Assembly (NCBI GenBank): GCA_040217195.1
Contig: JAVJNR010000004.1
Coordinates: forward strand, 512,001 to 576,000
DNA: 64,000 bases
Source of the DNA: Leptospiraceae bacterium
Lineage (GTDB): Bacteria > Spirochaetota > Leptospiria > Leptospirales > Leptonemataceae
Direction of reading: 5' to 3'
The translations under genes and the position numbers were made by a program. Below the pieces are notes generated by a model. The model did not search any database and was not told the origin of the DNA. It saw only the letters and a program-made list of their open reading frames with translations. Positions 51,763-56,861 of this stretch are shown here, one piece after another (position 1 is the first letter of the stretch; every line of letters starts with the position of its first letter).

Positions 51763-54300
51763 TTAGACGCCGGGTAGATCCATCTGCTTTAGATCCCTGC
51801 GCTGAAAGTAACCCACAGGTGCAGCATATTCCCAGACCTCGCGAAAAGCATCCAGTAACAGCTGATTATAATAGGCAATACTATAAGGAGGTTGTTTTCG
51901 GGGATCCGTTCCAAAGGATTGAAAGGCTATTTCTTCAGACATATATTTGGAAGCCCCTGGCTGGCCTTTCTCAAGCACAATATACTTCACTTTTTCTCCT
52001 GCCTGAACCTGAATCCCATAGGGCTCCAGTTCACGCAATGCAGCCGGTGCAGGACCATCTACGGCATAATCCTCCAGGCCCTTGCTCACGGTTCGCCTGA
52101 GTAGCAAATCGGTCCAGGGAATGCTTCTGCTGCTTAGCTCTTCTTTGAATTTGTTATAGATTTCTTCCATCTCTGAATGCATGGACTTCAATTCTTCTGC
52201 ACTCCTGCAAAGGGCCATTTTATCCAGAAAAGCCTCCTGAACAGTCTTGATCCAGGAGGGTCTATCCTTCCTTCTAACTGAAATACCACGGATGCGCAAA
52301 CTGCCATCCCGGAATCTACCAAAATAGCGATTCACTACTTCCACTCCAGGCTTTGAGCGGGAAGGTAGAAAAATCACCCAGTCATAGATGCCCTCCACGC
52401 TCATCTCGATTTCAGTGGCTGCTCCAATCTCTTCGCATACCTTCTCCAGTTCCTGCAGTTCGGATGCCTCCCGCTTTTCTTTTGACTCGACGATCTGAGT
52501 CGGACGATTCGAGTCATTGTCCGGAAGTTTGAGAAATAGGCAGTCTGTAATTCCATGAACTACGCTGTAATTCCATTCCTCTGCAATCTCCTTGGCATTG
52601 AGTAACTTATCTCGCCCAAATGCAGTAACCGCCTCATGGCTTTCGATCTTACCAAATTTAGCATTCCTGTAGCCAAGGTATCCGAAGGAGGTCACCAGCA
52701 TCCACTTCAGGCTTGATTGACGATGATCGTACATCTCCTTCTCTTCTTCCAGAGATTTCAGCTTCTGATCTCTTTCAGTCTCAGAATTTACATGCGAATC
52801 ACCTGAGTCCGGAATCCACTTTTTTATTTTCTCTATGGACCGGTTTAACTCTTTAATTCTGAGTTTATAGTGCTTTCTTCGCTTTAGAATGTGAGCCAGA
52901 GCGTCGGATACAATACCGCGTCGCCTTTTGCAGATTCGAAAATTAATCTCCGGAACATGCTCGGTTTCTTCATCGGAACAACAGCGACAGTTGATTGTTT
53001 CAGGAGATACGTTGTGAATACTCATTATTGAAGGATACATCTGGGAAAAATCGATCTGAGCCACGTTCTCCAGAATTCGACCTGCACGTGGAACAAATAC
53101 CAGCCCTCCTTTATCTGCCTCCAGAAGATCCATCACCGTACGTGGCTCCTCCAGGGCACTTTTCTGCCAGGGAACCAGATAGTTTTTCCGTAGAGCCACT
53201 TCACATTCAATGGCCGTTAGCGCAGCCCCGGTGGAAGATCTGGATAATCTTTGCACTGGAATTCGACTCATTCTGGATAGTTCAACAATGCCCATGAGTT
53301 GCGCTTCTTTGTATACGAAGGAATTCGCACTGTCTATGTGCCAGCGCCCAAATAGCGGATAGGAAGGAGCGAGAAAGATCCAGTTTCCATAGGTATTGTA
53401 GCTGGTTCCTTCGGTAACTATCTTTCTGCTGGATCCAGGAGCGACGTCCCGGTCCAGAAACGATGGAATACCATACTTCTGATAGGCCTGAAAGAGCACC
53501 GGAAAAAGCACCTGGTCGCCGTAGGCAGAAAGAATTATATCCGGGTCCAGGGTGTTCAGGTAGTCATTCAATGCTTCCAGTTCCCCGGGTCCTGGAGGCA
53601 CCGGCAAATCCAGACGCCTGCCCTGACATTCCAGCTGGATGCGCTGATCCGGAACATGAAATCTTTTGTGGGCACCTCTGGATAATAATTGCTGATGCGT
53701 AAGTCGATGGCCATAGTTCAGCTGCATTCTTAGTATGCGAACCGAAGGTAGCTGAAAATTCAGATCAAAAATATCATCCAGTGCCTGAATCCACTCCAGA
53801 TTATGAACAACCGGTGCCTGGCCAGCATTTCGCGTACCGGAAGACGCAAAACTGAGGCAGGCCCTCAGTCTACAAAGAGGAAATATTCCCTTTTGCTGCA
53901 TATAGCCAGTGGGAACCTCAAAGTCTGTGTGAAAAAGGTCCATGCGACCGTACATTGCATACAGTCGGTTTCTGATTTTTCGAAGCAAAGAAGGCCTGCT
54001 AATGCGAAGCTCCAGAACATCCACCATACGGTTCTCATAGAAAAGCTTTCTTTGCACATACACTGGATCTGAATGCAGTCCATCCATTTCATGTAATCGT
54101 TGCACCAGTTTCTGAAGTGTCTTTTCCGGGGCTCGGGCATATATAACAGGATTGAAATGATCCCTGCAGAGATAAAACCTTCCCTGTTCATCCAGAATAC
54201 ATAGATAAATCTGATCTTCCAGGTGGTAGATATCGAAAAGCCATCCGCGAACTGCGATCTGCCCTTTTTCGGAAGCGGTTGAGTGAGGGGAGCTATCCAT
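51763..54300 (-). CDS. Family B DNA polymerase, PolB2 (Dpo2-like) subgroup
   Basis: DFSQMYPSIM (motif A), LKWMLVTSFGYLGY (motif B), HGITDC (motif C variant), NRYFG; degenerate exonuclease region; CRCC..IC insert. Confidence 0.88.
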   Translation of the reverse strand: MDSSPHSTASEKGQIAVRGWLFDIYHLEDQIYLCILDEQGRFYLCRDHFNPVIYARAPEKTLQKLVQRLHEMDGLHSDPVYVQRKLFYENRMVDVLELRISRPSLLRKIRNRLYAMYGRMDLFHTDFEVPTGYMQQKGIFPLCRLRACLSFASSGTRNAGQAPVVHNLEWIQALDDIFDLNFQLPSVRILRMQLNYGHRLTHQQLLSRGAHKRFHVPDQRIQLECQGRRLDLPVPPGPGELEALNDYLNTLDPDIILSAYGDQVLFPVLFQAYQKYGIPSFLDRDVAPGSSRKIVTEGTSYNTYGNWIFLAPSYPLFGRWHIDSANSFVYKEAQLMGIVELSRMSRIPVQRLSRSSTGAALTAIECEVALRKNYLVPWQKSALEEPRTVMDLLEADKGGLVFVPRAGRILENVAQIDFSQMYPSIMSIHNVSPETINCRCCSDEETEHVPEINFRICKRRRGIVSDALAHILKRRKHYKLRIKELNRSIEKIKKWIPDSGDSHVNSETERDQKLKSLEEEKEMYDHRQSSLKWMLVTSFGYLGYRNAKFGKIESHEAVTAFGRDKLLNAKEIAEEWNYSVVHGITDCLFLKLPDNDSNRPTQIVESKEKREASELQELEKVCEEIGAATEIEMSVEGIYDWVIFLPSRSKPGVEVVNRYFGRFRDGSLRIRGISVRRKDRPSWIKTVQEAFLDKMALCRSAEELKSMHSEMEEIYNKFKEELSSRSIPWTDLLLRRTVSKGLEDYAVDGPAPAALRELEPYGIQVQAGEKVKYIVLEKGQPGASKYMSEEIAFQSFGTDPRKQPPYSIAYYNQLLLDAFREVWEYAAPVGYFQRRDLKQMDLPGV

Positions 54301-54404: not shown

Positions 54405-54695
54405 TCAGGATCTACCCGCATCGGAAGAAGGGCTTTCTCTCTCTTTTTCCAGAGCTTCTACTCGACGCTGCAGAGAGACTATTTCTTTATGCATTTCAAT
54501 CATCATACACATGGCCATGGAATCAAATGGATTGGGCTGGGCTGCCATGACTCCCACCTGCAACTGTGATCTTGCAGAAATCATTAATGCGTCAAAAGAC
54601 ATCCGATCTTCTTTTCGCAGAGCCTTTCTAAATTTACTGAAACGTTCATAGACACTGTCCACCAGGTTTGAATATGGCTGTAGAGTTCTTCCCAT
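54405..54695 (-). CDS. Small helical PolB2-associated protein
   Basis: MGRT..P...FRKALRKEDR..FD.L...AR signature; AGGAG SD; position between RadA-like and PolB2 genes. Confidence 0.8.
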   Translation of the reverse strand: MGRTLQPYSNLVDSVYERFSKFRKALRKEDRMSFDALMISARSQLQVGVMAAQPNPFDSMAMCMMIEMHKEIVSLQRRVEALEKERESPSSDAGRS

Positions 54696-54718: not shown

Positions 54719-55420
54719 TTACACTGAAACAATCCTGGATCTCTCAATTTCGGATTCTGGCAGTACATCCTTCGCATAAAAAGGAATTGTACGATTTCGC
54801 TGCAAATTCATATCCCTAAGTACAAGTGGTCGGTCTTTTTTACGCTTCTGTTTTTCTCTCGTAGAAGGAAGAGCATCCAGTTGCCATTGATATTCGGTCA
54901 GAGTACTGAATGCAGAAATCGCTCCTCCAAACAGTTTGCTCTTATACGAACCTGTTTCCACAATCAGATAGGGAATGCCCGCCTCATTCCATAAAGAAAG
55001 TACTGAAGCCAGCTTCTTAAGTAAGAATCCAGCCTCTTCCTCCTGCACGTCTCCATCAAAGAACTGCTTACAGGGTGCGAAGATAAAATACAAAGAGGGA
55101 TTAGAGCTTCGCCTTTCTTTATGCCATACAGACCAGAACAGATCCAGGATCTGGTAAGGAGTAAAGGCACGTTGAACCATAATAGATTTTAGCATCTCTT
55201 CGCCAGGAATCTCTCTGCGAAGTGCTTCATCCATAAGCTGGAATGCATTGAATCGAATGGAACAGTCTATATTAAAGATGCGATAACCACTCTGCCAGAG
55301 ATGAACCTGCAATATATGACTGAGCGGGAAAATCGGCGATGCACCGTACAGAAGTGCAGGCGAACGACGATCCCAGAAATGGGTAGACTGAACCGATTCA
55401 ACCAGAAGGTGAGACTCCAT
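54719..55420 (-). CDS. Inactivated RecA/RadA-like P-loop ATPase (ImuA-analogous)
   Basis: Degenerate Walker A (LLYGASP); IDCSIRFNAFQL; IMVQRAFTPYQILD; likely start ATG 55420 rather than 55459. Confidence 0.72.
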   Translation of the reverse strand: MESHLLVESVQSTHFWDRRSPALLYGASPIFPLSHILQVHLWQSGYRIFNIDCSIRFNAFQLMDEALRREIPGEEMLKSIMVQRAFTPYQILDLFWSVWHKERRSSNPSLYFIFAPCKQFFDGDVQEEEAGFLLKKLASVLSLWNEAGIPYLIVETGSYKSKLFGGAISAFSTLTEYQWQLDALPSTREKQKRKKDRPLVLRDMNLQRNRTIPFYAKDVLPESEIERSRIVSV

Positions 55421-55447
55421 ACTGGGAATCTCGACAACATGCCGTCT

Positions 55448-55460
55448 TTTGTAAAGCATA
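55448..55460 (-). promoter_or_regulatory. Candidate LexA (SOS) box
   Basis: TTTG-TAAAG-CATA, one mismatch to the Leptospira TTTG-N5-CAAA box, about 28 bp upstream of the cassette. Confidence 0.55.
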
Positions 55461-55639
55461 TATATGACGGCATATCGGTTTTAATGCTCCGGATCGCCAC
55501 TTCCCCGGAAGAAGCCAGCCGCAACTGTCCAGCCAGGTGCTCTGGCACGATGTGCTAGAGCACAGAATTATGGCACATCGCCCTACCTGGCTTCCTCAAA
55601 TTGAAGTATTCTCGATAGAATGGAGGCTCCTCCGGCCGG

Positions 55640-55893
55640 ATTAGCTCGTAACCGCCTTCCTGATGTGAAGCGAGGGTAGATTATGTCTCATTGAGGCTTC
55701 TAATGCGACAACCGGGAAGATTATGTCCCATTGTGCGGCCCCATCCGACATGGAGCCAGATTATGTCGCATTCGCTGACTCAATTTGAATTCCGGCTACA
55801 TTATGCCTCATCGAGCAGACCCTATGCGAAACAGCAACGAATTATGTCGCATTAGGCGGTCCCATGTATGACAGCGGCAAATCATGTCACAAT
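55640..55893. repeat. Non-coding array with 40-bp period: ATTATGTCGCATT-N9-AATGCGACA-N9
   Basis: 13-mer copies start at 55680, 55720, 55760, 55800, 55841, 55881; degenerate in-phase copy at 55640; out-of-phase copy at 55567. Confidence 0.9.
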
Positions 55894-55897
55894 TGTA

Positions 55898-55906
55898 TGC
55901 TATAAT
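55898..55906 (+). promoter_or_regulatory. Extended -10 promoter element
   Basis: TG-C-TATAAT immediately after the last array copy. Confidence 0.6.
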
Positions 55907-56198
55907 ACTAATACCCTCTCGGACGATTAGCACAATCGTAAGGAACCCTTCGCTCAGGAGGCTTTATCGCAATCCCAAAATACAGCCAGCCCGGACAGGC
56001 CCTGCAATCGAGATCCACGATCGTATCCACAGGTCCCTTAAAAAATCCACCAATCACTACCAGAATGTAGAAACCCTGGCGGGCCTGCACACACTCCGTA
56101 CTACCGCCCGGAAATGCATGAAATTTATTGCATCTTTCAATTGACAACGCCCGATATCAGATTAAAGGTCCTCAAATCTATAGAACCGGTACCCCACC

Positions 56199-56861
56199 AT
56201 GCCCCAGTACATCACCTACGATCTTACCTCTTATGCACACCGAGAATTCCTGCTGGAATATACGAATGCACAGAGACCTGATGTTGAGCTAATCGCTGAT
56301 ATTCTTAGAACCAGCATTTCCACAGGAACGCCACTGGAGCCAGGAGATAAAGTCCAGATCGGATGCTATCTATGCCGAGTCATCGACCGGGGGGATTATC
56401 TGGGACTGGAAGAGCCCTCTTTTCCATCCGATCCTCTGGAATGGGTGGACTCCGTTGATGCCACAGCTCATTATTTAAGGCTGCAAAAGGCTGCTGCAGA
56501 GTCCTGCAATCTGGCAGATGATCTGAGCTTTCCTGCGATCACACATACTGCATTCGTCTGCAGCGCCATCGATTCCGCTGAAGGAATCTTCATGGATCGC
56601 GTAGGACCGGTGTCAGATCAAGACTCAGGCTGGTTTATCGCCTGTTCGGACCAGAACCACGATCACGACTCCAGGGATAACCTCCGGCAAGAATCCCTGT
56701 ATGTACTTTCAATCAAGAAGCCGGTGGTAATTCCTTTCCTGGGTTTTCCGGTAGGCACCACAGCCATGATCAAGCCCGATGAAAGACCTCGCGTACTCTT
56801 ACATGGAGCAATGATACGCCCGGAGCATGATAGCTACCTGGACCGAGCTTCCGAAACATGA
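56199..56861 (+). CDS. Imm33/DUF2185-like protein
   Basis: GDKVQIG, WVDSVD, DQDSGWFIAC, SLYVL, PFLGFPVG. Confidence 0.65.
   Translation: MPQYITYDLTSYAHREFLLEYTNAQRPDVELIADILRTSISTGTPLEPGDKVQIGCYLCRVIDRGDYLGLEEPSFPSDPLEWVDSVDATAHYLRLQKAAAESCNLADDLSFPAITHTAFVCSAIDSAEGIFMDRVGPVSDQDSGWFIACSDQNHDHDSRDNLRQESLYVLSIKKPVVIPFLGFPVGTTAMIKPDERPRVLLHGAMIRPEHDSYLDRASET

Follow-up and report, generated by a model that had tools for sequence, protein, structure and literature searches.

XerD is one half of the recombinase that resolves chromosome dimers. A second role, as an unloader of SMC at a few sites of the terminus, is described for two Firmicutes. According to passages of PMC9226527, XerD binds independently of XerC at extra loci in Bacillus and Staphylococcus, FtsK is said to strip it from non-canonical sites, and an XDS combines a XerD arm with the innermost five bases of a second arm across a centre of 5–6 bp. 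Excerpts of four papers describe the XDS of Bacillus subtilis and Staphylococcus aureus as lying in the terminus region (PMC9226527, PMC11840125, PMC11894783, PMC10945525), and in Bacillus SMC is blocked by an XDS array that was built artificially (excerpt of PMC11840125). For Leptospira, a Hi-C map has been published (PMC13342612, excerpt), and six of 12 rows of dif predictions in the supplement to PMC3025954 end in TTATGTCNCAT. In the literature searched, which mostly comprised papers outside subscription access, XerD arms of spirochaetes that stand alone or form arrays are not described.

The window analysed here is a stretch of 64,000 nucleotides from a Leptospiraceae bacterium. Its genome is designated G000, and family (f) and genus labels are likewise codes.

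Array anatomy and the XerD arm of dif

The units of the array begin at positions 55680, 55720, 55760, 55800, 55841 and 55881. On re-reading, the same starts and the predicted spacings of 40, 40, 40, 41 and 40 bp were recovered. The array was reported by a repeat search; Tandem Repeats Finder gave no such report. No open frame extends across it, in line with the non-coding nature that had been proposed. The pattern ATTATGTCNCAT is exact in four array arms and has one mismatch in the arm at 55800, against a genome background of one-mismatch matches of 0.007 per 330 bp.

By comparison of the sequences, the array repeat TTATGTCNCAT is equal to the predicted XerD arm of the dif sites of its host. 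Three 28-mers with dif layout are present in G000, e.g. GCTTCCGATAATGTGGATTATGTCTCAT on contig C5. The polarity of KOPS is reversed at this site (left 37/7, right 0/22), which is 26 kb from the GC-skew maximum. Contig C8 harbours parA, parB and a rep-like gene, and its dif-like site is located 4 kb from the GC-skew maximum of C8. The same dif as on C5 was found opposite dnaA in G030 (2.16 Mb) and G024 (2.15 Mb), each of about 4 Mb. The dif pattern is present in 26 of 31 genomes, and 19 of the 30 fetched sites end in TTATGTCNCAT. The TTATG arm was taken as the XerD arm because of the arm assignment given in the XDS passages of PMC9226527.

All array arms lie on the forward strand and equal the dif XerD arm at 9–10 of 10 positions. 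Arm 1 (55680..55692, ATTATGTCTCATT) has the same sequence as the right-hand arm of the chromosomal dif, matching the dif arm on C5 at 11/11 positions, and its best XerC-arm match at 6–8 bp spacing is 4/11. Arms 2 (55720..55732) and 3 (55760..55772) match at 10/10 positions outside the degenerate one. Arm 4 (55800..55812) matches at 9/10; contigs from runs X1 and X2 carry C>T at 55806 and thereby have the consensus in place of its single mismatch. Arm 5 (55841..55853) again matches at 10/10 and is located 40 bp before a promoter element. A XerC arm was sought beside all five arms at spacers of 6–8 bp, yielding matches of 1–5/11 only. Judged by this anatomy, the array is not a recombination site. 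The original prediction had listed protein-binding sites for a recombinase as one of three models, and this model gained support, since the repeat can be named as the XerD arm of dif.

Position 8 is degenerate in lone arms (G18, T13, A12, C1) and in dif arms (T12, G9, A5, C4; 30 sites), and this degeneracy appears to be the same in both. An A precedes TTATG in 44 lone arms and is lacking in four; it is missing in 12 of the 30 dif sites.

A decayed in-phase unit had been proposed at 55640. The stretch 55640..55679 (forward strand) does align in register; its match to a dif arm is weak (7/11). An extra arm with one mismatch at 55567..55578 (forward strand), 107 bp before the first cassette gene, was absent from the original prediction; the single arm of G003, G004 and G005 corresponds to it in position.

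The 27-base filler between the array arms shows a pairwise identity of 41% compared to 26% in shuffles (0 of 5000 reach 41%), which confirms that the variable segments are partly alike and points to a common ancestral block for the array units. In run X2, a contig covers the array region with the same array units. Six substitutions set it apart between 55680 and 55893. A single one concerns an arm, where it brings back the consensus; two others lie within an inverted element, and one of these two improves the match of that element. Rfam yielded one chance match on the array, below gathering. A blastn comparison of the array with phage and plasmid collections gave no match in either, the 9-mer variable segments being beyond the reach of this method. 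Three loci only were found when IMG/VR was scanned for paired arms.

The second element of each unit had been described as the reverse complement of the core of the first. It is indeed inverted, but it matches the outer portion of the arm, and its phasing is with the arm that follows. The best inverted partial arm (55703..55713, reverse strand) lies 7 bp before arm 2 and has kept the outer eight bases and lost the inner three. Weaker equivalents on the same strand (55663-55673, 55743-55753, 55783-55793 and 55824-55834) have the same 7-bp gap to the next arm. Over the five arms, the match is 5–7/11 at spacer 7, compared to 0–3 at spacers 6 and 8. GACA was observed at the 7-bp gap before 14 of 70 arms (21 same-genus loci) and at most once at any other gap from 0 to 29; the 14 belong to 11 of the 21 same-genus loci, about six of them independent. 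Among other arms in G000, 1 of 40 has GACA at that gap. Each unit had also been read as a hairpin. This does not hold, as the partner is the next arm across 7 bp, not the previous one, and the predicted RNA fold of the array strand is no better than that of shuffles (z -0.53).

Polymerase cassette and terminal promoter

The cassette beside the array is encoded on the reverse strand. Its first gene (54719..55459, 246 aa) is without family match and has relatives in 22 of 30 other genomes. The following gene (54405..54695, 96 aa) is without family match over the cut-off, and the third (51763..54300, 845 aa) encodes a family B DNA polymerase (Pfam DNA_pol_B, 114 bits) that scores below the cut-off of the NCBIfam type B polymerase models. 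An inverted repeat at 55439-55473 lies across the start of the first cassette gene (246 aa); same-genus genomes keep the outer arm of this repeat, which is a possible operator of the cassette.

At the orthologous cassette locus, three exact arms (39 and 27 bp apart) were found in G002, two in G006, one each in G003, G004 and G005, and none in G001. Among 17 cassette-gene matches outside the genus, an exact arm is present only in G011, where it is reversed. These 0–3 copies with other spacings in relatives indicate that neither the 40-bp period nor the link to the polymerase is special. The phasing proposed in the original prediction is likewise at odds with the other arrays, whose periods range from 25 to 73 bp. 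As for the proposed link, the cassette is one of 26 lone-arm loci in G000 and arms lie beside many other genes, so that the cassette is one client among many.

The last copy had been assigned to the -35 position of a promoter. Instead, the element located 10 bp before TATAAT has the layout of a PafBC-type promoter (TGTCAC-N10-TATAAT, 55885..55906, forward strand), which points away from the cassette. The next gene downstream (56199..56861, forward strand) encodes an Imm33-like protein of 220 aa (Pfam Imm33-like, 36.9 bits). An excerpt of PMC8635444 gives the mycobacterial PafBC consensus as tGTCgg(N10)tA(N3)T. The TGTC-type layout has 15 intergenic matches in G000 at spacer 10, compared to 5–9 at spacers 6–9 and 11–15. 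The form TGTC[AG][CG]-N10-TAnnnT precedes recA, recX, rmuC, recJ, ogt and recC, and also dps and a C5 methylase with glycosylase; several such layouts lie exactly 28 bases before the start codon. A WYL pair (L268:777-2862), consisting of a WYL gene followed by an HTH_PafC-WYL-WCX gene, is located directly upstream of xerC. Taken together, a PafBC-type DNA-damage regulon is probable in this spirochaete, and represents a side finding that can be tested separately. At the polymerase locus, the same promoter element was found 42–43 bp behind the single arm in G003 and G004, as the variant TGGCAC further from the arm in G005, and is missing in G002, G006 and G001.

Behind the promoter, a short untranslated stretch (55907-55970) terminates in a putative hairpin. 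A comparable promoter and hairpin are present in G005, and the product of this stretch is not conserved where it was read. At the lexA promoter of G000 (C3:52699), a GTAAC-N4-GTTAC palindrome was observed, with only four intergenic matches of the patterns tried; it is a candidate LexA box of a small regulon.

Lone arms in the genome and in relatives

The pattern ATTATGTCNCAT occurs 44 times in G000, whereas 60 permuted patterns gave 2.2 copies on average and at most 8. Two copies belong to dif sites and 42 are without XerC arm; the lone XerC arm itself is not enriched (14, control mean 10). The 44 copies form 28 loci. ORF calls were crude, so the numbers of loci between divergent (16 of 28) and convergent genes (1; random intergenic points: 717 and 637 of 3000), of copies inside an ORF (9/44) and the distances to starts are approximate. 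Arms form six further runs in G000, with periods of 28, 29–33, 33, 36 and 65–73 bp.

Conservation of the motif in relatives, a check proposed in the original prediction, was observed in 29 of 30 genomes (6–48 copies compared to 0–2 for reversed controls). The exception is G007 (three copies, control three), which keeps dif, XerD and SMC. In the phylum (150 genomes), 36 genomes of f2, f3, f12, f24, f32, f39 and f44 have 5–69 copies, those of f12 only modestly above control, and the other 114 have 0–5. Paired arms 10–40 bases apart were found in 25 of 190 genomes of the class, including 7 of 7 of the genus, and in no controls. A scan of a species collection gave at least 80 matches; among those listed, 32 have spirochaete titles, 38 belong to one Caldithrix-titled assembly and 10 to others.

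Some genomes carry unusual forms of the repeat. Massive satellite-like expansions of the XerD arm with 31–48 bp units were observed in G303, G304 and G312 (L302, L303, L304, L318, L320), with up to 23 arms in one locus and a filler motif of its own per genome. A five-unit array of 41 bp lies directly upstream of a xerC-like gene in G295 (L329:243-420). G073 harbours a dispersed repeat, often at contig ends, one end of which resembles dif (left arm, 6 bp, TTATGTCCACT; L172-L186); it is possibly a mobile element that exploits Xer. This genome was discarded as a test of co-variation with an ACT-ending arm, as its apparent enrichment is this repeat with its own left arm. The family f9, whose dif arm ends in ACT, has no lone copies of that arm; thus, the motif does not co-vary with the dif arm in the one testable lineage.

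Genes next to lone arms in G000 include the second dnaA, dnaX-ebfC-recR, lexA, recX/SpiroCoCo, an HU-like gene, parA of contig C9, and parA and rep of C8, the arm before rep being 52 bp from the skew minimum of C8. Flagellar and division genes are represented by fliF, fliG, flhF, fliO and a POTRA gene after murC, and housekeeping neighbours are groEL, gcvH/P, rpsD/serB, rpsB and rpsL. Many arrays, too, are flanked by housekeeping genes of unrelated kinds (groEL, gcvH/P, rpsD/serB, pth, enolase). We take the POTRA gene to be ftsQ and the HTH_36 gene to be rep. Several junctions recur in different families: fliE|fliF (G000, G107), fliO (G000, G107, G053, G199), the division cluster (G000, G030, G107), SpiroCoCo (G000, G030), a DegT aminotransferase (G000, G014, G030, G183) and parB|rep of chromosome II (G000, G030, G024), with 10 of 12 sites of G053 and 9 of 19 of G014 covered. 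The arm orientation flips at the same junction, e.g. fliE|fliF, which excludes a core promoter element, an idea suggested by the CATAAT end of the reverse strand. No transposase or other dedicated gene was found beside arrays among 70 neighbours scanned, and no arm upstream of xerD in G000.

A DnaA box was considered and rejected: no exact arm is present at the dnaA-dnaN origin, and a second DnaA was not found in f2. G000 itself encodes a second DnaA (L022:1650-2966, contig C5), which is divergent and is preceded by a lone XerD arm. Two DnaA C-terminal domains are present in 15 of 18 f1 relatives and one in all 12 f2 genomes.

XerD probably occupies the lone arms, and we hold this with good confidence. 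G000 encodes SMC, a XerD over the NCBIfam cut-off and a XerC-like protein below it, and only the latter two have the Xer N-terminal binding domain. Among 28 aligned XerD sequences (of 29 hand-picked loci), 16 have the helix RKS(V/A)W, 15 of them from genomes with 6–69 arms, and the 12 others all come from genomes with 0–2 arms; this pattern is clade-wide and the sequences are not independent. The exception among the 16 is G007, with WKF for WRL. Its loss of arms with XerD kept would be explained equally well by the loss of a separate factor. SMC does not track lone arms (4/5 genomes have SMC). Contig C4 also encodes a tyrosine recombinase consisting of a catalytic domain only, with degenerate active-site motifs (L118:1435-2112) and strong matches only within the genus.

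Proposed role and comparison with known systems

We lean, with modest conviction, to the reading that the array consists of stand-alone XerD sites that were amplified by tandem duplication and act on local promoters. One ancestral arm upstream of the polymerase cassette would have multiplied through tandem duplication of a block of about 40 bp, an origin inferred here, after which the filler drifted and the arms were kept. XerD would bind each arm without XerC, making recombination impossible there, and a second XerD might be seated on the inverted partial arm 7 bp away. The array may thus be a local, amplified case of lone arms that are found order-wide in promoter regions and operon junctions, with division, flagellar basal-body, replication and repair genes as putative clients. 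Our best guess for the job of the bound protein is an effect on local transcription, by occlusion, roadblock or insulation; here it could insulate the cassette promoter from the PafBC-type damage promoter, with the number of arms setting the occupancy. Several points count against this reading: the upstream A that lone arms need and 12 of 30 dif sites are missing, the many arrays next to unrelated housekeeping genes, the lack of an arm upstream of xerD in G000, the cases of G007 and f9, and the single exact arm among the 17 cassette-gene matches outside the genus. Stripping of XerD by FtsK as a cell-cycle cue would be speculation. A wider reading, possible but rather doubtful, is that XerD serves in Leptospirales and allied spirochaetes as a global regulator through lone arms at division, flagellar, replication-initiation and repair promoters. 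The dimer-resolution enzyme, perhaps through its removal by FtsK at division, would then time these genes, and tandem arrays would be lineage-specific dials of its occupancy.

The main rival holds that XerD-bound arms serve chromosome architecture, by unloading or blocking SMC, with arrays as stronger barriers and the gene context as incidental. SMC is encoded, and the artificial array of Bacillus (excerpt of PMC11840125) provides a precedent. All nine lone arms of G107 lie 250–680 kb to one side of dif (P 0.00075 for seven merged loci confined to 21% of the chromosome), yet these sites are gene-linked as well (fliO, mraZ, mraW, ftsZ, fliF). Against a role in architecture, the 26 loci of G005 are spread over 91% of the chromosome, its orthologous polymerase locus is about 1.5 Mb from dif, and no clustering was found in G030 and G024 (P 0.31 and 0.34). 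The arms of G030 stay at ftsQ and flgC although dif is 1.3–1.7 Mb away, which speaks for a link to genes rather than to the terminus, and G007 and G037 have SMC without lone arms. Replichore polarity of the arms, assessed by eye, shows opposite trends in G005 and G030. We consider this rival unlikely. Still less probable is a separate transcription factor, such as a cell-cycle or flagellar regulator, that binds ATTATGTCNCAT and whose site dif contains or has recruited. The list of targets does resemble a cell-cycle regulon, the upstream A is strict, and G007 lost the sites and kept XerD. However, the motif agrees with the dif arm at ten specified bases and also in its degenerate position. Both candidates examined for such a factor also fail: the second DnaA, because the 12 motif-bearing f2 genomes each have one copy only, and recombinase L118, because it was matched in only 7 of 30 relatives.

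That the array is a neutral or selfish minisatellite derived from one functional site, its extra copies being idle, seems very improbable. Period and copy number vary freely, and three f53 genomes have 41–192 adjacent pairs with near-identical units. The arms here are nevertheless exact with filler identity down to 41%, and the one substitution in the X2 contig that touches an arm restores the consensus. The decaying tandem repeat of the original prediction therefore stands as to duplication and filler decay and not as to neutrality, given the conserved arms and the order-wide enrichment. We give very little credit to the units being repeated PafBC binding sites for a damage response. Genes for PafB-like and PafC-like WYL proteins are present, their inferred element TGTCAC overlaps the arm, a promoter of this kind terminates the array, and at recX a XerD arm serves as the upstream promoter element. 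However, TA follows TGTCNC at a distance of ten bases in only 3 of 44 arms, which is about chance; at position 8, arms mostly have G or T and the promoter set A; and most neighbours of arms are not repair genes. Least credible of all is transcription of the array and its cleavage into TIGR-like guide RNAs of about 40 nt, a model suggested by the alternation of repeat and 9 nt on paper. The absence of a Nop-domain Tas gene, reported earlier for the window, extends to the whole of G000 (PF01798, genome 94% complete), and the neighbours belong to other families. CCA boxes are present in 1/5 first repeats and 2/5 second regions, without consistent C/D boxes. Together with the lack of a fold and the similarity of the spacers, this speaks against the model; moreover, the period is not conserved, the repeat is explained as a dif arm and the only clear promoter is downstream of the array.

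If the XerD reading is true, gene-linked, chromosome-wide lone arms would extend the second role of XerD to a distant phylum, and possibly to transcription. The motif provides exact, mutable sites (ftsQ, flgC, parB|rep) in genetically tractable Leptospira, which bear on how these bacteria coordinate division, endoflagellar assembly and replication of chromosome II. It would also account for repeat arrays that are otherwise flagged as CRISPR- or TIGR-like in scans.

Comparison with TIGR arrays, as described in an excerpt of PMC12045711, shows two alternating short elements and 9-nt gaps in both cases. The period there is 36 nt, compared to 40 here, where it is not conserved, and the distinct spacers there contrast with the homologous filler here. 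The mycobacterial PafBC promoter (PMC8635444, excerpt) shares the layout TGTC..-N10-TAnnnT with the element at 55885-55906, and a WYL pair is encoded here; the likeness is limited to this terminal element, a predicted promoter, and the host is a spirochaete. FliZ of Escherichia coli, according to an excerpt of PMC3367168, is a precedent for an integrase/XerD-like fold acting as a global promoter-binding regulator of flagellar genes. It is a dedicated protein without recombinase part, and no such extra protein was found in G000.

With dif, the array shares an identical right arm. It fails the layout of dif and pdif (11-bp XerC arm, 6-bp centre, 11-bp XerD arm), and lone arms are many-copied, far from the terminus and without XerC arm and 6-bp centre. 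The XDS are closer: here too, a full XerD arm is located away from dif without XerC arm, a partial inverted second arm offers a possible second XerD seat, and the host encodes XerD and Smc. However, a 5–6 bp centre and innermost bases there are replaced by a 7-bp gap and outer bases here. Whereas XDS occupy the terminus region and their arrays were built artificially, lone arms in Leptospirales are chromosome-wide and follow genes (clustered in G107), and tandem arrays are natural. The array thus appears to differ from the known XerC-independent XerD sites in its geometry, its gene-linked spread and its natural tandem arrangement.
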